64,000 bases of DNA from a virus (IMGVR_UViG_2579778606_000002:27981-91980); one strand, 5' to 3'; shown: positions 2,397 through 57,389, counted from the stretch's first letter. Program-made: numbers and translations. The notes: generated by a model not told the origin, from the sequence alone.

Positions 2397-3359
2397 TCAT
2401 CCCCGAAAGCCCTCCGGAATTGACCAGTCTTCCCGGTCAAATTCAGACCGATAGCCACGCTGTTTCATCAGGTCAAAGGCTTCACCAATGGTTGCACACC
2501 CCTGGGAGCCAGAATAATCCATTGAGAAATCCAGGGCACTGGATTGTTTAGGCTTATTCACTGCTGTAGCGGCACTACGTATCCATGCAAATTTTTTTGC
2601 CAGCTTTTCAGCGGTACGATACAGAGCCTGCCGTTTTGCGTGCCCCTCATCTGAACGACGCTTTGCAGCTCTCGCTTTTGCCGCCGCCAGGCAGTGGTTG
2701 GTATGTTCTTCCCTGATTACTGGTTTTTTATCCAGACCCCCATTATCCGCTTGAGAACTATCTGCTGGTGAAGCCTTTGGCTGAACCGCGCATGATCTTT
2801 CTCTTCTTTTGGCTATAGAGTGACTCTTATTTTCTATTGGCTGTTCATTTTGAACATGGGGGGACTTGTTCAATTTGAACAGGGGGTTCCCAGTTTCAAA
2901 AAAATAACGAACCTTTGAAATCAACTGCTTAACCAGTTTTGTGGCGTTGGCAAATTTGATGCCCTGCTTACTCCCTATCTCCATTGCTACATGAATGAAG
3001 TGGAGAAATTGTGTTGTAAACCGGTACACGTTACACACCTGAGCATTGTTATTCGCTACCTGATGCTGCTTAACAAGCATTCCGCACTTCGTCGCTTCGG
3101 CAAATGCCCGGCGCACAGTAGAAATACTGCGTCCTGTAATCTCGGACATATCCGCATATGAGCGACGGATCATGTATTCATCGGTAGCTCCTGCCAGGTT
3201 GGCGAACTCGGCAATAATGGCGCTATGTGAAGGGGAAAGAAAACCGCTATGACGAGCAAAAAAACTCAACTGATGACCTTTGATTTTTTTGTGGTATTCA
3301 GTGTTGTTTTTATACTCAGAAGTGTTGAAAGTAACTGAAACTGAATTTAAAATACTCAC
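2397..3359 (-). CDS. Hypothetical protein with predicted HTH (ITGRSISTVRRAFAEATKCGML); possible replication or regulatory protein
   Basis: 320-aa ORF (GTG start in track) flanked by operator-like palindromes; no confident family assignment. Confidence 0.5.
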   Translation of the reverse strand: MSILNSVSVTFNTSEYKNNTEYHKKIKGHQLSFFARHSGFLSPSHSAIIAEFANLAGATDEYMIRRSYADMSEITGRSISTVRRAFAEATKCGMLVKQHQVANNNAQVCNVYRFTTQFLHFIHVAMEIGSKQGIKFANATKLVKQLISKVRYFFETGNPLFKLNKSPHVQNEQPIENKSHSIAKRRERSCAVQPKASPADSSQADNGGLDKKPVIREEHTNHCLAAAKARAAKRRSDEGHAKRQALYRTAEKLAKKFAWIRSAATAVNKPKQSSALDFSMDYSGSQGCATIGEAFDLMKQRGYRSEFDREDWSIPEGFRG

Positions 3360-7346: not shown

Positions 7347-10300
7347 TTTGCAACTCCTTCATACATCCCAAGAAAAATTCCAGCACGCCGTCATTGTTTA
7401 ATACAGAGTTAGTCGCCTGCTCAGGATCGGCATACATCTGCAAGGCCATAGAAAAAATCTCAGTCGCCCTGCAATTGCTTAATGCAGGTGGCTTTGATAT
7501 AAATCTGCCGCTGACAGAACTTACCGTATTTTCCATATAAATTTTAGACATATATCCATGACTTAGGTCGGTTCGCACCAAATACTCAGCACTGCCACGG
7601 CTACCAATATTATGATAAAAAACTTTACCGTTAGTTTTTGATTTAATGAAGGCTTTGGCCCTCTCCAATAGATGGGGATTTGAATGTTCTATATGGTGAC
7701 CTATTTCATGCCATAATACACGCTCGTGATCACTATTAGCATCAATTGTTATATTCCCATTTCGACTTGCAAAAGCACGAACATTGTTCTTGTGGTTAAT
7801 ATTTTTTAATGTAGATAAAGTCCCTCCTGAAATAATATAGGCTTTTTCAATTGTCTCGCGAATACTGTATGCTTTACGGGAGAAAGTTTCATTATCGTGA
7901 CCACTTAACTGCTCTGCTTCATCAGAAATAGCAATCCCACGACTCCATTCCTTAGACTGGTCATGTGACACATTTGACGATTCAAGAATCATGTCAAATG
8001 CGGCTCTGACTTTTTTATGTACTACATTTTCAAGCGCATTAGGATAGGCTTTTTGTCCACGTGTTAATGAAGCTATTTCATATAATTCTGCTTGCAAGTC
8101 TTCCGGTATGTCCAGATTAAAAACAAGCATTTTTTTCAGTTCATATCCAATCCCATGATCATTCTGGTGCAAAACCTCAGCAAGGTAGTCAGTGAGTTTT
8201 TCCTTATTTGACCTAACTTTATTGATTTGTTCTATAGTAAAGTCAACGCGCTCCTTGATTCCGTAATATGAGGAATGCTCTGCTAATTCCACTATCTCCT
8301 TAAGCCTGACAAGTGTCTCAATATACGCATCAGCGATCTCCTCTGCCGTTAGTTCGGAGCTAACTCCGACGCTGGCTGTTATTTCCCTACCAGCCGCCAT
8401 AATATCGTTGATATTATGCAAGCTCTTTTTGAATAACTTCAAAGTATTTTGGATTATGCGCACCATCTCTTCTGCGCTTCCAGCTTTATTCATTTCCTTT
8501 CTAAATCTTAAAGCTGTTTTCTCTGCAATAGACGCTGGAGATTTTAAATAGTTACCTAACCAAACAAGACAACCATTGCGCAATTCATCAATGCTAAAGT
8601 CATCAGGAATATGTTTTGCTGCATTATGTAAAACACGTATAAATTGTTCAGCGGGCACGCCTTCTTCTGACATATTGCAAAACGTTTCAATGTCACAATC
8701 AATATTTCTTTCATCTGCGAGTGAAGGAGCTTCATCTCCTTTTTCAATCGCGTCACGCAGTGCGTTAGCATAAAAATTGCTGCGTTGATAAGACAATAAC
8801 ATCGTTGTTAACACAGCGTTGCTGTATCCATAACGTTTAGCCCACGCCTTAATCTCATTAACGGTGACATTGCGAATATAAAAACCAAGTTCCAAAAATA
8901 CATTGCGCTTTATTTTTTTTGCGGACTCCTTAATTTTTTCTGACGCCTTCACGATTCGGATCAAGTCCTCCACGCTGGTCGCATCAGCAATTAGCTTTGA
9001 AATGTATGGTTCGACATCTCCCGAAACCGATTCGAACATGGCGAAATTAAGCCCTTTACCTTCGCCATACTCAGCCTCAATTTCATCAGAAACGGCAGAT
9101 AAAATGCTACGCAGATCGACATCTCCGCCGCCGAACATATCGCCTAACGCTTGTTGCTGGTGAATAAGTTCATCGTTAATTTTTTGCGCCAGTTTCTTGA
9201 AAGCTGCCCCCATTCGCTTAGCGCTTCGGTTGTTGGCAACAATAAACAGAGCAAGCGCTTCTGCTTCCGGAGTGCTATCTCCAAACAATCCACGCTGTGC
9301 GATCACCTCTTCTACTGCCTGACCGTTATCTTTTGCTTCACGAACAAGGTTAATTGCTTCCTGTAGCGCGGCAATAGCCTGTTTATCCAGACCATTCAAT
9401 TGCTCTATACCGTCTACCAGTCCGGTTACCGTGTCATGGTGAACATCACCTGAAAGCGACTGCATTTGCGCAAAATCGCTGGCTGCCGTATTTAATGCGG
9501 TAAGGATGTTACGCATTTCCGGATCTGGCTCTTCCGCCACCAACCGAACAAGCCTTTCATCCTTGTACGCTTTGGCAAAAATTGCATTCTGGATGCGGTC
9601 GATAAGTTGTTTCGTTGGACGCCCATCGGCTGTAAGCAAACCTGCCGTCGCCGTATCACCTATTTCGCGCAAAAACGCACGAATAAACGCATCATTGGAC
9701 CGCGCCAGTAGATTCCCATCATCTGAAGGATTAAATAGCGCCATGACGCTCTCAGTGAGAAATTGCGCATCCGCATACGCTTTTTCACTTGCAGCCATCT
9801 CTTGCAGATCGCTGATGTTTGAATCGCGGGCGAACTGCGCACGATCAACATCAGTGAGTCTTTCGCGCACCAATACGGGCATAGACATTTGTGAAATGTC
9901 GTCAGGATTCAGACCAAACTCTTTTGCATGATCGATCAGGTACTGGCGATATTCATCCGCCTGCCCTTGCTCATAGGCACGCCAGATACCCATGCTCCTT
10001 CCGTTGCCGGATTCAACAACGTTGTCCGGACCAACTATCGGCGCTCCGTGGCTGCTCATGCCGGAATCCGTTAATTGTGCCGGGCGTAAATTGGAGGCAA
10101 TACGGTTAACCTGGAGTTTGCTGGATAGCCGTGTACGGTCACGTGGCTGGAGTTCTTCCGGGAAGGCCGGATTAATCGTACCGTCAAGGTTGTTCGAAAT
10201 GATCAGACTGCTGGCATCAACGACCTTAAAAGCCGTCTTTACCTCTGCCCCTTTACTGGTGACTACGTAACTACTGCGCCCCTGGCGTGTTTCTCGCCTC

Positions 10301-27601: not shown

Positions 27602-28486
27602 ATGGTAGATGACAAAAAAGGCTTTCTGAATGTTGAGGAAATATCAGGGAATACCGGAGAAATCCACAGCTTAAAGCCTAACAATAATAGTACTATTCAG
27701 CCGATAGCTTTGTTGCGGCTTGGGGTGTTTGTTCCCACATTGAAATCTACCAGTGTTGCTTTACGTCGCAAGAACGCCGGTTTAACTAACTCCACTGATG
27801 CGACAGAAGAGCTGTCCAGCCTGAAGATTGTAGAGCAGGAAGGGTATCAGGGTATTGAGATTCATGGTCCACGCCTGGATATGGATACTGATTTTAAGGT
27901 GTGGATAGGCATTACATCTGCATTGTTTGACTATAAACCAGATAATGATGGTGTGATCACCCTGACATTCTCTGAATTTGTGGATCGTTGCGGTTATCCA
28001 AGGAAGCGGCTGTCCAAGGCTTTTCGCAAGAGCATTGGCGACTCTCTAACGCGTATTCAGCAGACGTTGCTGAAGTTCAACTTGCCCACCAGCAAAGAAC
28101 ATGTTCGTTATATCCAGATGAATTTATTGGCATTTAGTGAACTTGATACTGAAAATGACATTATAAGAATCCAACCGCAGAAGCAGTTGTCTGAGTTGTA
28201 CTACGTTGACTATAAGCGAATATTGAAGCTCAAAATGCTCGATAAACTTGGCAGGAAAGAGACAGCCAAGGTGCTTTATACGTTTTTCGAAGCGTTACCT
28301 TCAAACCCTGCGCCAGTGAGTATTGAGCGCCTTCGTGCCAGATTGAACCTCAAGTCCTCGGTTAGCGTTCAGAACAGTGTGATTCGTAAAGCCATGAAAG
28401 ACTTAGAAGCTGTTGAATATCTTAAATTTTCAGAGATAAAGAATGGTCGGAAAATAGGTTTCCAGATCCATAAACGAAATCCATAA
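27602..28486 (+). CDS. repA: Plasmid replication initiator RepA (P1 RepA-like)
   Basis: 294-aa ORF with AAGGA RBS; segments QPIALLRLGVFVP and FFEALPSNPAPVSIERLRARL recall P1 RepA; iterons on both sides. Confidence 0.8.
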   Translation: MVDDKKGFLNVEEISGNTGEIHSLKPNNNSTIQPIALLRLGVFVPTLKSTSVALRRKNAGLTNSTDATEELSSLKIVEQEGYQGIEIHGPRLDMDTDFKVWIGITSALFDYKPDNDGVITLTFSEFVDRCGYPRKRLSKAFRKSIGDSLTRIQQTLLKFNLPTSKEHVRYIQMNLLAFSELDTENDIIRIQPQKQLSELYYVDYKRILKLKMLDKLGRKETAKVLYTFFEALPSNPAPVSIERLRARLNLKSSVSVQNSVIRKAMKDLEAVEYLKFSEIKNGRKIGFQIHKRNP

Positions 28487-37800: not shown

Positions 37801-38595
37801 TTATGGTTCCTTTTTAGTGTTGCTTTGGAGCGCATCGATCACACCTTGTGGCATGATCAAACTGATTGCCGGACTCATTACTTCATCGCCCAGTAGAGAA
37901 CCGGTTAACGTAATAGCTACAGCATTCTCCAGTCCCTGTTTGGCTTTTCCGGTAGAGTCCTTAAATTGCTGTACAAGTGTTGAGAGACTACTGCTCGTGT
38001 TGTTTATTGCATTTATTTGTTCTGTTGCTGCTTCCACAGCGTCTTTTAGTGCTTTGATCTCTTCTTCTGTTAGTGCTGGTTGCTGTGTTGTTCCGGTGGA
38101 ACTTCCGTTGCCTGAAGCCTCCCCGCTTGACGCCTGAACTTTTGCATTTATAGCGGTCATGGCTGAAGTGATTGGCACCAGTTCAAATGCTGCCAACGCG
38201 TCAATAAGCGATTGCGGATGCAGGGTATCTCCCATAACTGTTACGAGAGCAAATTCTGGCGCAGGAGATAACTCATTACCTTTGACGTAACATTCCCAGC
38301 CAATTTTCATCTGAAGTAATTCAGTTGGCGAAGTATACGGAGACAGCGAGTCGGCTAAATTGGTTGCTTCTGCACTGACAGTTTTCAGTTGTTCTGAAAA
38401 GACAGAAAGCTGATTGACCCATGAAACCACCGACGCCGGGTATGCTTTATCCTTCAGGATAAGAGCCTGGATATTCTCTTCCAGAGAACTGGCATTGGAT
38501 GACGCTGTTTTACTTAGCGTGATAGATGCAGGCGTAGTTGTGCCTGATGCATTTAGAATTTTGAATGCATTAACTTCAGCGATTGAATCAAGCAT
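37801..38595 (-). CDS. Hypothetical protein downstream of PAAR-like gene
   Basis: 264-aa ORF, 1-nt overlap with upstream PAAR-like ORF. Confidence 0.4.
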   Translation of the reverse strand: MLDSIAEVNAFKILNASGTTTPASITLSKTASSNASSLEENIQALILKDKAYPASVVSWVNQLSVFSEQLKTVSAEATNLADSLSPYTSPTELLQMKIGWECYVKGNELSPAPEFALVTVMGDTLHPQSLIDALAAFELVPITSAMTAINAKVQASSGEASGNGSSTGTTQQPALTEEEIKALKDAVEAATEQINAINNTSSSLSTLVQQFKDSTGKAKQGLENAVAITLTGSLLGDEVMSPAISLIMPQGVIDALQSNTKKEP

Positions 38596-38879
38596 TATGA
38601 CACCTGAAAAATTGCCTCACCATTGGCGATGACTGAGCCACAAGAAAGGGGATCTCCCACACAAACAACTCCTTTCCCGCCTATTGCAAACCATGAGCGC
38701 GTCGATACGGCTGATCCGGGGTGCGCGCTATTTCCGTCTGTATGGCTGGGGAACGCTCCCCCATCTACAACCACTGGCTTTCCATTTACGGTAAACCAAG
38801 AAACTGTTTCTGCTACAGGTCGCGGAGGGAATCCTCCATGACCAGAACAAACTGTGTCACTGGTCGCTATTGCACTCAT
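38595..38879 (-). CDS. PAAR-like spike-tip protein
   Basis: 94-aa ORF with repeated Gly/Cys motifs (CSGHGG, VNGKPVVVDGG, GKGVVCVGDPLSCG) reminiscent of PAAR repeats. Confidence 0.4.
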   Translation of the reverse strand: MSAIATSDTVCSGHGGFPPRPVAETVSWFTVNGKPVVVDGGAFPSHTDGNSAHPGSAVSTRSWFAIGGKGVVCVGDPLSCGSVIANGEAIFQVS

Positions 38880-38939
38880 CTAACACCTCCTTTTTCTTAA
38901 ATCTTCTCCACTTTGTGATTTTCACTCTTCAGATCTCTT

Positions 38940-39120
38940 ACTTCTCACATTTGTCTCTGATTTGTCTCAAACAGGTGTCGTGGGTACATCATGTATCATC
39001 TAAGTCTCTTTTGTGTCTCTCTTACGTCTCTAGTTTGATGCTTTTTACGCTATCTAACTTCTGGTCTTATTTTGTTTTCTCATATAAAATTCAATTCTTT
39101 CTCAAATGTGTCTCAGAAGT
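38940..39120. repeat. parC-like centromere region with multiple (T)GTCTC iterons
   Basis: Six or more short GTCTC-containing repeats upstream of the ParM-like gene. Confidence 0.4.
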
Positions 39121-39131
39121 GGAGCAATATG

Positions 39132-40088
39132 ATGCGCATTTTTATCGACGATGGTTCTACCAATATCAAAATGCTGTGGGAACAAGACGGGGAAACTCGA
39201 ACCCATATCTGTCCGAACAGTTTTAAACGTGGATGGTCCGCCACATTTGGCGCAGGAAAGCCGTTTAACTACATCATTGATGGCGAAAAATATTCATATG
39301 ACTTGATCTCGCCGGATGTGCTGCCGACGAATAACGTTGAATGGCAATACAGCCCGCTTAATGTGCTTGCTGTTCATCATGCCCTGCTTACAAGTGGCAT
39401 TGAGCCTCAAGAAGTGGAAATAGTTGTCACGTTGCCACTGGCAGAGTTTTATGACGACGACGCACAATACAACATGAAAAATATTGAGCGGAAAAAGGCC
39501 AGCCTGATGCGACCAGTCACCCTTAACAAAGGTCAGGTTTTTACTATCAAAAAAGTGACTGTGCGCCCGGAGTCAATACCCGCAGGGATCGGTCTGTGCG
39601 ACAGCCTTGTGCCAGCGCATTCTGTGCTTATTGTTGATCTTGGTGGGACTACTCTGGATGTGTCGATGGTCGCCGGGCAAATGACCGCCGTTTCTCGCGT
39701 ATTTGGCGATTCTAATCTCGGCGTTTCGCTGGTAACTAAAGAGGTCAGACAGGCACTTGCAAAAGCGAATACCGAAACCTCTAATTATAATGTCGATCAA
39801 TTAATCATTAATCGTGATGATGAGGATTATTTGACCGACAATATTAACGATCCGTCTGCTATTGATGATGTTAAGAAAGCCATTTCGTCAAGCATAGAAC
39901 GACTCCGTACACGCGTACTGGATGTGATCAGTGATTTCAAAGGATACACGCATGTTATGGTCATTGGTGGCGGCGCGCCGCTTGTTGCTGATGCTATCCG
40001 TGAGCAGGTAAACATTCGTGACGATAGGTTTTTCGTTGCTGATGATCCACAACTTGCTCTTGTCTATGGCCTAAAATCTATCGGTTGA
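39132..40088 (+). CDS. parM: Actin-like segregation ATPase ParM/StbA
   Basis: N-terminus MRIFIDDGSTNIK and HVMVIGGGA match plasmid R1 ParM; GGAG RBS. Confidence 0.8.
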   Translation: MRIFIDDGSTNIKMLWEQDGETRTHICPNSFKRGWSATFGAGKPFNYIIDGEKYSYDLISPDVLPTNNVEWQYSPLNVLAVHHALLTSGIEPQEVEIVVTLPLAEFYDDDAQYNMKNIERKKASLMRPVTLNKGQVFTIKKVTVRPESIPAGIGLCDSLVPAHSVLIVDLGGTTLDVSMVAGQMTAVSRVFGDSNLGVSLVTKEVRQALAKANTETSNYNVDQLIINRDDEDYLTDNINDPSAIDDVKKAISSSIERLRTRVLDVISDFKGYTHVMVIGGGAPLVADAIREQVNIRDDRFFVADDPQLALVYGLKSIG

Positions 40089-40098
40089 TGAGGTTGCC

Positions 40099-40464
40099 AT
40101 GTCTCAGGAACGTCGAAAAGTATTGTTTTATCTTCGTCCTGGTCTTAACGCCAGTGAGCAATATGCTGATGCAAAACTTGAGGGCCATCCATTAAGAGAT
40201 CGCAATGATATGGCGCGCACAGCGATGCTTGCAGGTATCGCTCTTGGCGAGGTTGATAGCAGATTACCTCCCATGTTGGCATCGCTTTTATCCGGTGATA
40301 ATAGCCCTGAAGTGATCAGAAAAATGCTGGTTTCATTTCTTGAAATTTCGCCTGAAGTTCGGGAAAACCCTGAAGGAAACCCCTCAGCCTCAGCGGATGT
40401 TAAAAAACCTGGCGTTTCGAAAAGCCGCTCTGCACAGAATTTGGCAAACTCACTCCCTGATTAA
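40099..40464 (+). CDS. ParR-like centromere-binding adaptor
   Basis: 121-aa ORF directly after parM, as in the R1 parMRC cassette. Confidence 0.5.
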   Translation: MSQERRKVLFYLRPGLNASEQYADAKLEGHPLRDRNDMARTAMLAGIALGEVDSRLPPMLASLLSGDNSPEVIRKMLVSFLEISPEVRENPEGNPSASADVKKPGVSKSRSAQNLANSLPD

Positions 40465-40489
40465 CAAATCTACATCTTCAAAGGCTGCA

Positions 40490-40740
40490 ATTTGCAGCCT
40501 TTTTTATACTGTTATGGTTCTAATTTGGTGTTCTTTTAGTACCAAAACGGTGTTGTTATGGTGCTGTTTTGTGTCTGGTTCCACTTTGAGGCTGATTTCG
40601 TGTTAAACAGGATGCAACAGAGGGTAAATTTAGAGTGTTTAGTGTTATACTTTTGCAAAGCATAGTGACTCCACTATAGAGCCAAAACCGCATCAATAAG
40701 GCTTCTGTTTGGAACCAGTTTGATACCAAAATAACACCGA
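40490..40740. repeat. Centromere-like repeat array upstream of parA (GGTGTT / TAGTACCA / TGGTTCC motifs)
   Basis: Short motifs recur here and again downstream of the cassette at 41680-41785. Confidence 0.4.
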
Positions 40741-40749
40741 GGAACGGAT

Positions 40750-41391
40750 ATGATTATATTGGTAGTCAGCCAAAAAGGTGGCTGTGGAAAATCAACCACA
40801 AGCGTAAACATCTGTGCGGAGCTTGCCCGCGAAAATAAGGATGTAGTGTTACTAGATGCAGACAAGCAAGGAACAGCTGCCCGCTGGGCAGCTGACCGTA
40901 ACACGGCAGAGGTTTCTCCTGTAATTCATTGTGTCCAGAAGTTTGGTAATATTCGAGAAACACTTCTCGATCTGGATAAGCGTTATGAATTTGTAGTTGT
41001 TGATACAGCCGGGCGCGATAGCAAAGAGATGCGTACAGGCATAACCGCTGCAGATATTGTGTTAGTCCCATTCAGACCATCTCAACCAGATTTAGACACG
41101 CTGGCACACTTTGTTGAAGTGTTTGAAGAGGCTTTGGACCTGATGCCTAATCCTAGCATTAAGGCGTTCGCAGTCTTAACAATGGCCCCATCCAATCCGG
41201 TTGTGAATGAAACCAATGAGGCCAAAGAGTACCTGGCTGAATATCCGCAACTGAAGTTGCTGAAAACCATCATTCGTGATCGTAAGGTTTACCGCGATTG
41301 CATGGCTGAAGGGAAGGGCGTTGTTGAGATGGACAACGGGAAAGCTAAAGGTGAAATCCAGATGTTGGTTAAGGAGTTATTAAGTGATTAA
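40750..41391 (+). CDS. parA: ParA-family partition ATPase (small type Ib, ParF-like)
   Basis: Deviant Walker A box VVSQKGGCGKST near N-terminus; 213 aa. Confidence 0.8.
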   Translation: MIILVVSQKGGCGKSTTSVNICAELARENKDVVLLDADKQGTAARWAADRNTAEVSPVIHCVQKFGNIRETLLDLDKRYEFVVVDTAGRDSKEMRTGITAADIVLVPFRPSQPDLDTLAHFVEVFEEALDLMPNPSIKAFAVLTMAPSNPVVNETNEAKEYLAEYPQLKLLKTIIRDRKVYRDCMAEGKGVVEMDNGKAKGEIQMLVKELLSD

Positions 41392-41671
41392 GCCTCGTAA
41401 ATCGGTAAAAGCCCCCGAAGTAAAAGACCCCGATCTTGAACGCCGAATTGAGGATTTTGCCAGTAAGGCTGATTTGGTGCCGGGTGAGCAACCAGAAGAC
41501 AACAAAGTGCTCGATAAGGACGCCCCACGTGATTTTAAATCCATTCGTGTTGGCTTCAATGAATACGAGTACCAGGTACTTGATGCGTTAAGCAAAAAGC
41601 ATAATCGCAGCAAATTGAATATGATCCGCCATGCTATCCTCATGCTTGCAGAGTCTGAGGATACAAAATGA
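41384..41671 (+). CDS. Small partition adaptor (ParG-like RHH candidate)
   Basis: 95-aa ORF overlapping parA stop; C-terminal YEYQVLDALSKKHNRSKLNMIRHAILML resembles a ribbon-helix-helix. Confidence 0.45.
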   Translation: MIKPRKSVKAPEVKDPDLERRIEDFASKADLVPGEQPEDNKVLDKDAPRDFKSIRVGFNEYEYQVLDALSKKHNRSKLNMIRHAILMLAESEDTK

Positions 41672-41679
41672 CGCCGGAA

Positions 41680-41785
41680 TAACACCGTTTTGGTTCCATG
41701 TGGTATTTTGAGGCTACTTTGATGCCTTTTTAGTACCAGAATAGTGTTATTAGTGTACCGTAATGGTGTTTGTTTGGTGTTATAA
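41680..41785. repeat. Centromere-like repeats downstream of partition cassette
   Basis: AATAACACCG, TGGTTCC, TAGTACCAGAA and GGTGTT motifs related to the upstream array. Confidence 0.4.
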
Positions 41786-41806
41786 AAGCCCCATGTGGGG
41801 CTTTTC
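41784..41806. terminator. Bidirectional terminator (aaaa-GCCCC-atgt-GGGGC-ttttc)
   Basis: Hairpin between the convergent partition-adaptor and dam-like genes with A-tract and T-tract. Confidence 0.6.
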
Positions 41807-42841
41807 TTAATTAAGCGTGGCTATAATGTCGTTAGCTATCATTCGCGTTGATGCTTTACAGGATACAGAGCGACGGGATGGCATAGGATACACCTTGAAG
41901 CCATTGCCAACGTAAAGTTCGCGAATGTTAGGCGCACCACTGTTTGTTATCACAATTTTCGCTCCGCGTCTGTGGGCATCCACCAGCAGTGACACCAGCC
42001 GTTGTTGATCTTCAAACCTAAAGCTATGCCCTGAGTAATTTGTAAATCCGGTAGTGTCGGGCAATGGTTCATAGGGGGGATCGCAGAAAATCACATCATC
42101 ATTCCCGGCAGCCTCAATTACTCCAGCAAAATCGCCGGACACAAATTCCGAATACTTTGAAATATCGTCAGCCAGGAACGCCTCCATTTCCGCGAGAGGG
42201 AAGTGGGGTGATTTCTGCTTTCCATATCCGACGTTGAACTCTCCTTTACGGTTATAGCGAGTGACGCCATTAAAACAATGACGATTGAGATACAGGAACG
42301 CCGCTGCATGGTGAAGGGAATCATAAGCACCATTGTTGAATGCATTGCGAACATTCAAAAATGCATCAGCAGAGTTGTAATCCTGAAAAAAACGATATGC
42401 CAGTGTGATAAGAGAATGCCCTTCACGCTGCAATGTCTGATAGAAGTTAATCAGGTCATTATTGATATCGTTCAGCAGGTTGCTTTTAAATCCGGCATTA
42501 GTGAAAACAGCGCCACCTCCAACGAAAGGTTCTATCAACCGTTTTCCGTGGGGCAGGTGTTCGAAGATAATGGGCAGTGCAGAAAATTTGCCGCCGACCC
42601 ACTTAAAGACTGGGCGATCAAATTCGTCCTCCGAGCGAATACGTCGCATATGGCTGATAGTGGCTTCCGCCGCAGGACGATGATTGTCGCTATAAGAAAT
42701 AAATTTAGCACCAATATCAGCCACGGATTCCCTCCTTATTTGCTTCAAATACAGCTCTTGCAAAACCGTAAGGTGTCGCGCTACGAAAATTCGCTCTTTC
42801 AGGTCCTGGCGGTGCCTTGTGTATTCGGTTGTCTGGATCAC
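41807..42841 (-). CDS. dam: Dam-like N6-adenine DNA methyltransferase (true start probably internal, near 42649)
   Basis: FKWVGGK and DPPY motifs, alignable to E. coli Dam; track start overlaps upstream ORF. Confidence 0.75.
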   Translation of the reverse strand: MIQTTEYTRHRQDLKERIFVARHLTVLQELYLKQIRRESVADIGAKFISYSDNHRPAAEATISHMRRIRSEDEFDRPVFKWVGGKFSALPIIFEHLPHGKRLIEPFVGGGAVFTNAGFKSNLLNDINNDLINFYQTLQREGHSLITLAYRFFQDYNSADAFLNVRNAFNNGAYDSLHHAAAFLYLNRHCFNGVTRYNRKGEFNVGYGKQKSPHFPLAEMEAFLADDISKYSEFVSGDFAGVIEAAGNDDVIFCDPPYEPLPDTTGFTNYSGHSFRFEDQQRLVSLLVDAHRRGAKIVITNSGAPNIRELYVGNGFKVYPMPSRRSVSCKASTRMIANDIIATLN

Positions 42842-43523
42842 CTAACGACTCGTCGATTCGCGGAGTTGGCATGATGAATCCTTGTCCGCTCCACAGGCAT
42901 GTTTTTTTGGTGTAATTGTCTTCCTTGCAATATGCAGTGAAGTGATAAGGATGGAATATGTGATCAGGTTTACGCCAGAATGTCGATATTTGGCTGACCG
43001 GGTTTTCAATCATGTACGGGCAACCAATCATCTTTGCAATGTCGTAACACTGCCAGACAACCTGCATTGCTTTGAACTGGAAAACCGGATCTTTTTTCGC
43101 TTTATCTGCGAACCAGCGTGCGCCAGATACAGCCAGGTCAGTACACGGAGGGAAACCGGCTAAAAATACAACTCTGTGCAAATTTTTCCGAAGGAAATTG
43201 TAGACCTCATCACTGTCAATAATTGCGCTGATACGTGTGAGTACAGCACCTGACTCCATCAATTGGCTGCCGGACTCCTGGTGTTGCGGATCGACAATGA
43301 CTGCATCAATGCCGTGTTCCAGCCAGGGGGAAACCATATTCCCTGTATAATCACAAAGACTCACCGCCAGCGGTCGGTTATTAATGCTCTGCTTCACCGC
43401 CAATGGCCTCCACCAGCGAGCTAAACATCGCGGATAATTCGCTTGTGAACAGAATGAAGTCAGCATCAAATCGCTGGGCAACATCTTCACGGTCGATGTC
43501 ATCGTTCTGGTCATAGAGATCAT
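42717..43523 (-). CDS. Divergent C5-cytosine methyltransferase-like protein (start uncertain)
   Basis: GFPPC (motif IV-like), MIENPV (ENV motif) and a C-terminal motif-X-like segment; overlaps rdgC and dam ORFs. Confidence 0.45.
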   Translation of the reverse strand: MISMTRTMTSTVKMLPSDLMLTSFCSQANYPRCLARWWRPLAVKQSINNRPLAVSLCDYTGNMVSPWLEHGIDAVIVDPQHQESGSQLMESGAVLTRISAIIDSDEVYNFLRKNLHRVVFLAGFPPCTDLAVSGARWFADKAKKDPVFQFKAMQVVWQCYDIAKMIGCPYMIENPVSQISTFWRKPDHIFHPYHFTAYCKEDNYTKKTCLWSGQGFIMPTPRIDESLGDPDNRIHKAPPGPERANFRSATPYGFARAVFEANKEGIRG

Positions 43524-56464: not shown

Positions 56465-57075
56465 TGGCTATACGCATTATGAAAATTTACATCGCGGGTC
56501 CGATGACTGGTTATCCCGACTACAACCGCACAGCGTTTTTTTCGAAAGCAAAAGAGCTGATGGAGGCAGGGCATATTGTTCTGAATCCGGCGCTGTTACC
56601 TGCTGGCCTCTGCCAGAGCGAATACATGGATATTTGCCTTGCTATGGTGCGTTCGGCTAATGCGGTCTATTTGCTCAAGGGGTGGGAGGAATCAGTTGGC
56701 GCTCGTGCAGAGCACGAGCTGGCTCAAAAGCTGGGGCTGAATGTAATTTATGAGTCACCAACCAACATTGAATGCCAGGTTGCTCCGCATATTTACCGGG
56801 AACTGGTCAATGCACTGCGTGATATCGCTGCTGTATATCACGGCACAGAACAGCTTCGTGAGCGTTTAGCCCATACCATTTCCTATTACCTGTCTTTATC
56901 TCATGAGCACAAGCTCCGCCAGAAGGTAATGATCAAATTTATCATGAGGTTATCGAAATCCCTGGCAAACGCCGATCCAAAGAATCCATTACCGAAAGAG
57001 GCAATGAATTACCTGAAGTCCTGCAACGTTGTTTCTGAAGATGGCGTTCTTTTGGTTAGAAGGAGTTCTGCGTGA
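56464..57075 (+). CDS. DUF4406-like (nucleoside 2-deoxyribosyltransferase-like) protein
   Basis: MKIYIAGPMTGYPDYNRTAFF..GHIVLNP motif; track ORF starts at upstream TTG 56437. Confidence 0.6.
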   Translation: MAIRIMKIYIAGPMTGYPDYNRTAFFSKAKELMEAGHIVLNPALLPAGLCQSEYMDICLAMVRSANAVYLLKGWEESVGARAEHELAQKLGLNVIYESPTNIECQVAPHIYRELVNALRDIAAVYHGTEQLRERLAHTISYYLSLSHEHKLRQKVMIKFIMRLSKSLANADPKNPLPKEAMNYLKSCNVVSEDGVLLVRRSSA

Positions 57076-57389
57076 GCTGGCGGGGATGGGGAAGGGCAGA
57101 AATCATGATACTCCGCCAGTGCGCCGGGACTATGACAGTCGAGAGTATTGGGAGGCTGATCGGGCGTACCGGTAGTGCTGTCAGAACCAAAGCGCGGCAA
57201 CTGCGGATCTGCATGATTCTGAAAGGAGACTTTCACCCGTCAGCCAAATACCGGCAGGGCGATATAGAACTGGCACGGCAGCTTCATCGGTGTGGTGTTC
57301 CCCGCCGTGAGATCGCAGAAAAACTCGAAATGCCCCTGGGCATGATTAATCAGTACGTTTATTTCGAAAGGAGAGTGTATGAAGTCTGA
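57072..57389 (+). CDS. Hypothetical small protein (possible HTH)
   Basis: 105-aa ORF, GTG start with AGGAG RBS, GTGA overlap with upstream stop. Confidence 0.45.

Follow-up and report, generated by a model that had tools for sequence, protein, structure and literature searches.

Partition operons of two types, each with its own repeat arrays, lie in tandem in a D6-like phage-plasmid

The two cassettes and their repeat arrays

We analyzed a 64,000-nucleotide (nt) stretch of viral DNA (IMGVR_UViG_2579778606_000002:27981-91980), referred to below as the window, which belongs to a D6-like, P1-related phage-plasmid of Escherichia coli. D6-like elements make up subgroup g2 of the P1 phage-plasmids (PMC7969092; PMC6799933). 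An earlier note, made from the sequence alone, had placed two different partition systems side by side at positions 38940 to 41806 and had taken the element for a phage-plasmid; both statements hold. The two cassettes lie in tandem: one is a type II ParM-ParR-parC cassette, and the other consists of a ParF-like type Ib ParA and a small adaptor. Matches in Pfam, the Protein Data Bank (PDB), NCBIfam, and PHROG identify ParM, ParR, and ParA.

The first cassette begins with a putative centromere and operator for ParR (parC; 38929 to 39116, + strand), in which nine (G/T)TCTC iterons phased at 11 base pairs (bp) are arranged in three triplets. The iterons lie at 38938, 38949, and 38960; at 39000, 39011, and 39022; and at 39073, 39095, and 39106, so that the spacing is 11 bp in the first two triplets, and the gaps in the third are 22 and 11 bp. 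The GTCTC iterons that had been noted before parM-parR are strongly enriched: between 38930 and 39128, the + strand holds six copies compared to 0.10 expected from the window-wide frequency, while the − strand holds none. Nowhere else in the 64 kb is GTCTC so dense (at most two copies per 200 nt). Autocorrelation of parC peaks at lags 11, 22, and 33, and Tandem Repeats Finder (TRF) called a period of 11 at 39004 to 39031. The last two, promoter-proximal iterons are common to D6 and to another relative, RL465; the upstream iterons are lineage-specific, reading GTCTC in the window and (A/C/T)TCTCA in D6. A consensus promoter scan found no convincing sigma-70 promoter within parC, where the parMR promoter is nonetheless presumed to be located.

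The parM gene (stbA; 39132 to 40088, + strand; alternative ATG at 39129) is preceded by a GGAG ribosome-binding site (RBS) at 39121 to 39124 and encodes an actin-like segregation ATPase of 318 amino acids (aa). Its product matches the Pfam StbA_N domain (7e-70) and the ParM C-terminal domain (9e-56), both beyond the cut-offs, aligns over its full length with R1 ParM structures in the PDB (E 1e-111), and falls into PHROG 691, "partition protein" (7e-76). The phosphate- and adenosine-binding motifs DDGSTN, DLGGTTLD, and GGGAP were all found. Ten nucleotides past the parM stop codon starts parR (stbB; 40099 to 40464, + strand), whose 121-aa product is the predicted ribbon-helix-helix (RHH) centromere-binding adaptor of ParM. 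It matches Pfam Plasmid_stab_B at 3e-14 (53 bits compared to a cut-off of 25), the pB171 ParR structure 2JD3 over residues 3 to 78 (E 3.9e-7), and PHROG 8671 (8.6e-58). The operon ends in an intrinsic terminator (40480 to 40502, + strand), a 10-pair stem followed by a T-run, with a folding energy of −14.5 kcal/mol (z −4.5). This hairpin, absent from the earlier note, is invariant across all aligned relatives and separates the two operons.

The second cassette encodes a 213-aa partition ATPase of type Ib, a small protein with a deviant Walker A motif and without an N-terminal DNA-binding domain (parA; 40750 to 41391, + strand). The Walker motif KGGCGKS occupies residues 9 to 15, and Pfam matches are to CbiA, MipZ, and AAA_31. 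The designation of this protein as ParF-like is well founded: the best solved relative is TP228 ParF/ParA (4dzz and 5u1g; E 1.5e-18, full length), the top NCBIfam model is ParA_partition (E 7e-48, 162.8 bits), and the PHROG assignment is 164, "ParA-like partition protein." The sequence is 43% identical to the pB171-type ParA and 44.5% identical to the IncI/K (pESBL-type) ParA.

The parA stop codon is overlapped by the GTG start of a 95-aa gene (41384 to 41671, + strand), the product of which is a predicted centromere-binding protein of the ParB/ParG kind. It has a basic N terminus (MIKPRK), a helix with the motif IExFAxxAD, and a predicted C-terminal RHH domain at residues ~50 to 92. As a single query, the protein retrieved nothing from Pfam, NCBIfam, or PDB, and its PHROG (9169) is annotated as "unknown function." A word-indexed homologue search returned close relatives only; an exhaustive profile search returned 124 cluster representatives. 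In a family alignment of 78 sequences, M-[IV]-K-x-R at the N terminus, IExFAxxAD, and a C-terminal KxIxVPFNEYEYxxL...GRSKLNxIRxAI are conserved. Pfam models of the RHH clan were matched by members of this set (NikA-like by 25, RHH_1 by 20, and DUF6290 by 13), and the family profile gave weak matches to CopG and HP0222. Every distant family member lies directly behind a parA of ~210 aa, and the parA-adaptor order is kept in all contexts examined. A 15-bp near-perfect tandem duplication, GTAAAAGACCCCGAA (1.9 copies, 41405 to 41433), was called by TRF within the part of the gene that encodes the N-terminal tail.

When AlphaFold was given the 78-sequence alignment, the 95-aa protein was modeled with a predicted local distance difference test (pLDDT) score of 83.8, rising above 88 at residues 50 to 92, where an extended strand segment is followed by two helices; with nine close sequences only, the score was 58. 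The top of the Foldseek list for this model consists almost entirely of RHH proteins (CopA, CopG, Arc, ParG [1p94], ORF56, TacA, and AmrZ), with target-normalized template-modeling scores of 0.67 to 0.82 and root mean square deviations of 1.2 to 2.0 Å over ~42 residues. By its modeled fold, the 95-aa protein is therefore an RHH protein, one with a conserved basic N terminus. Together, the fold, the family, and the arrays described below provide good evidence that it acts with ParA as centromere-binding protein and repressor and that the arrays are its sites.

Arrays of short boxes lie on both sides of the parA-adaptor operon. The upstream array (40509 to 40650, + strand), the positional equivalent of pB171 parC1, consists of direct 11-bp-phased boxes with the consensus TTTTGGTGTTA, starting at 40512, 40523, 40534, 40545, 40556, 40573, 40595, and 40637, and includes the near-palindromes TAGTACCA and TGGTTCCA. 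The downstream array (41676 to 41786, + strand), equivalent in position to pB171 parC2, contains one inverted box at 41680 and direct boxes at 41688, 41698, 41728, 41739, 41761, and 41772. The two arrays share TTTTGGTGTTA and TGGTnCCA boxes, and both show an 11-bp periodicity as lag-11 autocorrelation. Three further boxes in inverted orientation, TGGAACCA, TGATACCA, and TAACACCG, follow one another with 11-bp spacing just 5′ of the parA RBS (40707 to 40739, − strand). A position weight matrix (PWM) for the boxes gave − strand hits at 40710 and 40721, inverted repeats I4, I8, and I18 were recorded here, and the stretch is nearly invariant in relatives; it is probably an operator.

The bracketing of this operon by arrays sharing GGTGTT, TAGTACCA, and TGGTTCC, which the earlier note had pointed out, was assessed by counting motifs in the two intergenic arrays, 366 nt in total. 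GGTGTT occurs six times compared to 0.28 expected, TGGTTCC three times compared to 0.06 expected, and both copies of TAGTACCA in the window are located here. When a PWM was built from the upstream array only, the downstream array ranked first in the rest of the 64-kb window, with six hits per 130 nt compared to a mean of 0.36, or five compared to 0.10 at a stricter threshold. The enrichment statistics and this cross-validation between the arrays rule out a chance origin of the repeats. In a distant member of the family (locus L017), whose adaptor is 41% identical, 11-bp TTGGTACCG repeats are found on both sides of parA-parB, which suggests that the box of the family is TGGTACC(A/G) with a palindromic core. 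TAGTACCA, TGGTTCCA, TGGAACCA, and TGATACCA are all one-mismatch variants of this box, and 6 of the 26 one-mismatch hits in the window fall into the 366 nt of the arrays, compared to 0.15 expected.

The boxes persist where the surrounding DNA does not. The window and D6 lineages have homologous upstream arrays, in which the boxes are kept and the spacers vary. In RL465, the upstream region is unalignable, yet it is full of GGTG(T/C), GTACC, and GGTGCC boxes. The downstream regions of D6 and RL465 are not homologous to that of the window and carry boxes of the same kind, e.g., GGTGCACC, TGGTTCC, and GTGTACCA.

A candidate parA promoter region (40643 to 40680, + strand) contains either an extended −10 element, TGtTATACT (40643 to 40651), which does not vary among relatives, or TTGCAA-N16-TATAGA (40653 to 40680). 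In this part of the locus, TGTTATACTTT is unchanged throughout alignment A3, and RL465, whose intergenic region is unalignable in other respects, still has TGTTATAGT. The segment GGCTGATTTCGTGTTAAACAGGATGCAA (40586 to 40625), which separates the direct array from the candidate promoter, hardly differs between the window and D6 lineages and is not obviously composed of boxes.

The cluster ends, as the earlier note had it, in a bidirectional intrinsic terminator. The hairpin AAAAGCCCCATGTGGGGCTTTT (41784 to 41805, both strands) is common to the parA-parB operon (+ strand) and to the convergent dam gene (− strand, ending at 41807). Its GC stem is flanked by an A-run and a T-run, and its folding energy is −14.6 kcal/mol on either strand (z −3.3 and −4.4). 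A scan of the region against Rfam returned nothing meaningful.

Conservation and exchange among relatives

Compared to phage D6 (MF356679), the coding parts of the locus are ~84 to 88% identical, and the gene order is that of D6 orf58-61. The D6 GenBank record, which lists these genes as StbA, StbB, a possible ParA, and a hypothetical protein, is thus a prior annotation of the locus. Matches were also obtained to 122 plasmids from Escherichia, Salmonella, and Shigella, which are ~90 kb in size and non-mobilizable; in seven, the match is full-length at 96 to 99.4%. Both cassettes are present in ~111 to 122 records, compared to 121 Escherichia, Salmonella, and Shigella records that contain the neighboring phage genes, i.e., nearly all D6-like records retain both. 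The locus itself is flanked by phage genes, the PAAR gene upfC (38595 to 38879, − strand) on the left and dam (from 41807, − strand) on the right.

Strong purifying selection acts on both ATPase genes. ParM is 93% identical to its D6 counterpart at the amino acid level, with synonymous sites near saturation (proportion of synonymous differences, pS, of 0.73) and a ratio of nonsynonymous to synonymous change (dN/dS) of 0.015; over the comparisons with D6 and RL465, parM dN/dS is 0.015 to 0.020. For parA, the comparison with RL465 gave 93% amino acid identity, a pS of 0.60, and a dN/dS of 0.024. The adaptor is 77% identical overall to that of RL465 and retains the RHH domain. Of the proteins encoded here, ParR evolves fastest: it is 62.5% identical to D6 ParR at the amino acid level, and the changes, together with a 5-aa indel, are located in the N-terminal DNA-binding part. 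The divergence of ParR and of the upstream iterons could mean different ParMR centromere specificities.

Identity to D6 is distributed unevenly. The genome-wide median is 80.5%, while the block from 40700 to 41650, which covers parA and the adaptor gene, is more than 99% (~99.5%) identical, with a parA dS of 0.014, and is the longest such block; the adaptor matches that of D6 at 93 of 95 positions. On either side of it, parR is 55 to 65% identical, and parC and the downstream array are unalignable. A few further blocks near-identical to D6 were observed, at 2400 to 3200, 9050 to 9300, and 56700 to 57200. Such blocks point to recent, patchwise recombination between diverged phage-plasmid lineages. 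An explanation of the parA block by conservation of a DNA-level function was considered and rejected, since synonymous sites of RL465 parA are saturated and near-identical blocks occur elsewhere; both facts speak for recombination. In plasmid pKFS-D08_2, the window-like segment reaches further left into the intergenic region, and exchanges with differing end-points must therefore have occurred.

A further indication comes from a more distant P1/D6-like phage-plasmid of Citrobacter portucalensis. In NZ_CP099371 (locus L013, 5448 to 6364; syntenic to 38880 to 41806 of the window), the interval between the PAAR gene and dam holds one type Ib cassette and no parMR. This cassette is of the IncI/K kind, with a 208-aa ParA and a 97-aa partner; the ParA is 78% identical to the IncK ParA and 44.5% identical to that of the window. 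The mosaic identity to D6, from ~99.5% in the parA-adaptor block to 55 to 80% or unalignable in the flanks, and the single-cassette Citrobacter relative together support the recombinant origin that the earlier note had raised.

The gene for the replication initiator, Rep (27602 to 28486, + strand), sits ~10 kb from the partition locus. It encodes a 294-aa protein of the Rep3 family (Rep3_C 7.5e-6), which is more than 96% identical only to its counterparts in two close plasmids (NZ_CP085065 and CP042620); ~400 others match at ~77%. BLASTP of this Rep against the 251-aa D6 orf42 initiator revealed no detectable similarity, indicating that the replicon module was exchanged, too.

Known partition systems and the proposed function

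Adjacent loci of the two types are known from plasmid pB171, where par1 (ParM/ParR/parC) is of type II and par2 (ParA/ParB/parC1 plus parC2) is of type Ib. As a stand-in for the pB171 double locus, we used pCE10A, whose ParR is identical to the protein in PDB entry 2JD3 at 129 of 130 positions. ParM, ParR, and ParA of the window are 42.5, 33, and 43% identical to those of the pB171-type locus of pCE10A; for the adaptor, comparison with pB171 ParB revealed no detectable similarity in sequence. Both loci have a small RHH-type ParB gene behind parA and arrays on both sides of parAB. In pB171, the operons run divergently from a central parC1 region that they share, and there is regulatory cross-talk between them; in pCE10A, parMR and parAB are likewise divergent, with hexamer repeats between the operons and downstream. 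In contrast, the operons of the window are tandem and co-directional (+ strand) with a terminator between them, and the boxes are derived from TGGTACCA with an 11-bp period rather than being hexamers of the ATCACA/TTCATA type. The replicons differ as well: that of the window is a phage-plasmid, and pB171 is an IncFIB virulence plasmid.

Each cassette also has close parallels among single systems. With ParMRC of plasmid R1, the window shares a ParM matching over its full length, a parR gene directly downstream, and a parC of 11-bp-phased direct iterons. The R1 parC has five plus five iterons around the promoter, whereas that of the window has ~nine (G/T)TCTC iterons in three triplets. The type Ib cassette resembles ParF-ParG-parH of TP228 and the IncI pESBL locus in its small deviant-Walker ParA, in its small adaptor (a dimeric RHH protein with a flexible N-terminal tail in those systems, and predicted to be so in the window), and in arrays of short boxes, both direct and inverted, which in pESBL, too, lie on both sides of the operon. 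The window adaptor forms a sequence family apart from theirs, with 124 cluster representatives and no Pfam model, and its boxes are spaced by 11 bp, whereas the IncI/K type has contiguous 8-bp CTTGTTAT units. For pESBL, experiments have demonstrated a type Ib par locus, in which ParB has 100 aa and octamer arrays flank the operon at either end; pB171 and pSM19035 also have dual arrays, and dual flanking arrays are the normal layout of type Ib loci (PMC7602700). We observed the same layout in loci L004 and L005; an IncK2/Z plasmid with a ParA 44.5% identical to that of the window shows it.

Phage P1 segregates by one type Ia system with a large helix-turn-helix ParB and parS, located beside its replicon. 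The role, segregation of a low-copy plasmid prophage, is shared with the window, and the phages are related; however, the window has two systems of other types, and the Rep gene is ~10 kb away from them. The D6 annotation showed no P1-type par. A 2026 survey of PLSDB reported more than one partition system in 19% of par-bearing plasmids and 971 accessions that combine RHH type I with type II (PMC13245405); D6-like accessions were not found in the supplement files of that survey that were searched. The earlier note had called the side-by-side arrangement unusual, and this part of it does not stand: the pB171 precedent, the survey counts, and the dual-array precedents make both the composition and the bracketed architecture ordinary, and the D6 record had annotated the genes. 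What is specific to the locus is the tandem arrangement of terminator-separated operons, the lack of shared boxes, an adaptor family and box for which no description was found in the literature searched, and the phage-plasmid replicon.

We consider it very probable that the region is the segregation module of the D6-like phage-plasmid and consists of two independent partition operons in tandem. The identities and folds of the proteins, the arrays, the terminators, the conservation, and the purifying selection are the established part of this reading. With the exception of one weak hit, no type Ib boxes were detected in parC, and GTCTC does not occur in the type Ib arrays; cross-talk of the pB171 kind was accordingly rejected, as no boxes are common to the two systems. 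Unrelated centromeres, separate terminators, and the lack of cross-binding boxes lead us to expect that the two systems are independent and redundant.

From the protein families, we infer how each cassette would bind DNA, drive its ATPase, and stabilize the element. In the first, dimers of the RHH protein ParR would bind the 11-bp-phased TCTC iterons of parC cooperatively to form a partition complex, which probably represses its own parMR promoter. The complex would also cap actin-like filaments of ATP-ParM, the growth of which could push paired copies apart. In the second, the 95-aa protein is predicted to bind boxes derived from TGGTACCA, one helical turn apart, in both flanking arrays, with the upstream array and the inverted boxes beside the promoter and RBS doubling as an autoregulatory operator. 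Its basic N-terminal tail may stimulate the ATPase of nucleoid-bound ParA-ATP dimers, and the resulting ParA gradient would space plasmid copies over the nucleoid by a diffusion-ratchet mechanism. The conservation of M-[IV]-K-x-R and IExFAxxAD in the 78 family sequences supports this role of the adaptor indirectly.

Several observations weigh against this assignment of two complete systems. The 162.8-bit score of ParA lies below the ParA_partition equivalog cut-off in NCBIfam (180 bits). The 95-aa protein is without sequence similarity to ParG or pB171 ParB, and, its domain being short, its Foldseek E-values are not significant. The type Ib arrays are degenerate, TRF makes no call on them, and the box matrix was curated by hand. 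The consensus promoter scan gave no credible promoter for either operon, and neither of the two parA candidates was called. In two relatives, the parA-adaptor interval is shortened: by 4 nt in FWSEC0003 (locus L008, 3152 to 4069), where parA is unannotated, and by 18 nt, with indels, in pMUB-MIN14-1 (locus L007, 3371 to 4274), where both parA and parM are unannotated; these may be pseudogenes or sequencing errors. Last, the literature searched yields no experiment on this element or on D6.

A different reading of the same genes is that only one cassette is a working segregation machine, while the other is kept for another purpose, such as incompatibility with or exclusion of related phage-plasmids, host-range- or condition-specific back-up, or mere regulation. 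The possible parA lesions in the two relatives just mentioned fit this idea, as does the Citrobacter relative, which gets by with a single type Ib cassette in the same slot. On other plasmids with dual par loci (SCP1, R27, and pINV), one system is often dominant or condition-dependent (PMC13245405), and the near-identity of the parA-adaptor segment to that of D6, in genomes that are otherwise ~80% identical, means that the lineages would share their type Ib specificity. Nevertheless, we regard a single working machine as unlikely. In diverged lineages, neither the ATPases nor the adaptors show damage and all four are under strong purifying selection, the arrays of the two systems have likewise been retained, and nearly all D6-like records keep both cassettes. 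Still less probable, to the point that we give it hardly any weight, is that the ParA/RHH pair serves a DNA transaction other than partition, e.g., VirC1/VirC2-like DNA processing, or positioning or regulation in lytic development. ParA does match VirC1 models in Pfam (1.9e-12) and in NCBIfam (3.5e-14), VirC2 has an RHH fold, and the adaptor family (PHROG 9169) is unannotated. However, partition ATPases are the best matches of ParA by a wide margin (ParA_partition at 7e-48 and ParF, full length, at 1.5e-18), the surroundings of the locus contain no relaxase or transfer genes, and MOB-suite classifies all close relatives as non-mobilizable. In addition, relatives of the ParA/adaptor pair adjoin plasmid replication initiators, e.g., in plasmid Kacie_13, and an operon with dual arrays is a type Ib signature. 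The VirC1/VirC2-like role was thus rejected on the scores and the genomic context.

Two independent partition operons therefore remain the preferred reading, and the exchanges described above allow a more speculative extension of it, which we put forward tentatively as something that may well prove wrong. In P1/D6-like phage-plasmids, the interval from the PAAR gene to dam might be a hot-spot of piecemeal cassette swapping, with two systems letting relatives escape partition incompatibility and with the 95-aa protein representing an undescribed RHH family acting on one palindromic TGGTACCA box per helical turn. On this proposal, the trans-acting parA-adaptor genes moved between diverged lineages without the cis-acting arrays, ParR and its iterons diverge fast, and the replication initiator is unrelated to that of D6. 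Were this so, co-infecting relatives sharing one partition specificity would still segregate via the other system.

The analysis yields a full, testable map of D6-like phage-plasmid inheritance, including predicted centromeres that would set the partition incompatibility of co-resident elements. Such phage-plasmids, which sometimes carry resistance genes, occur commonly in E. coli, Salmonella, and Shigella. For PHROG 9169, which has no Pfam model, the modeled fold suggests a role as the RHH centromere-binding partner of type Ib ParA. No new principle is involved, as double par loci of such composition and type Ib arrays on both sides are already established.

The dam boundary of the locus

The longest open reading frame (ORF) of dam extends from 41807 to 42841 (− strand; 344 aa, GTG start) and overlaps an upstream methylase-like ORF (42717 to 43523, − strand) by 125 nt. 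Since D6 dam encodes 301 aa, the true start of dam in the window is probably near 42712. In D6 (locus L001, 6843 to 8504) and in most D6-like plasmids, glnS, the gene for glutaminyl-tRNA synthetase, separates the downstream array from dam. The window lineage is without glnS, and the bidirectional terminator stands at that place (junction 41806/41807).

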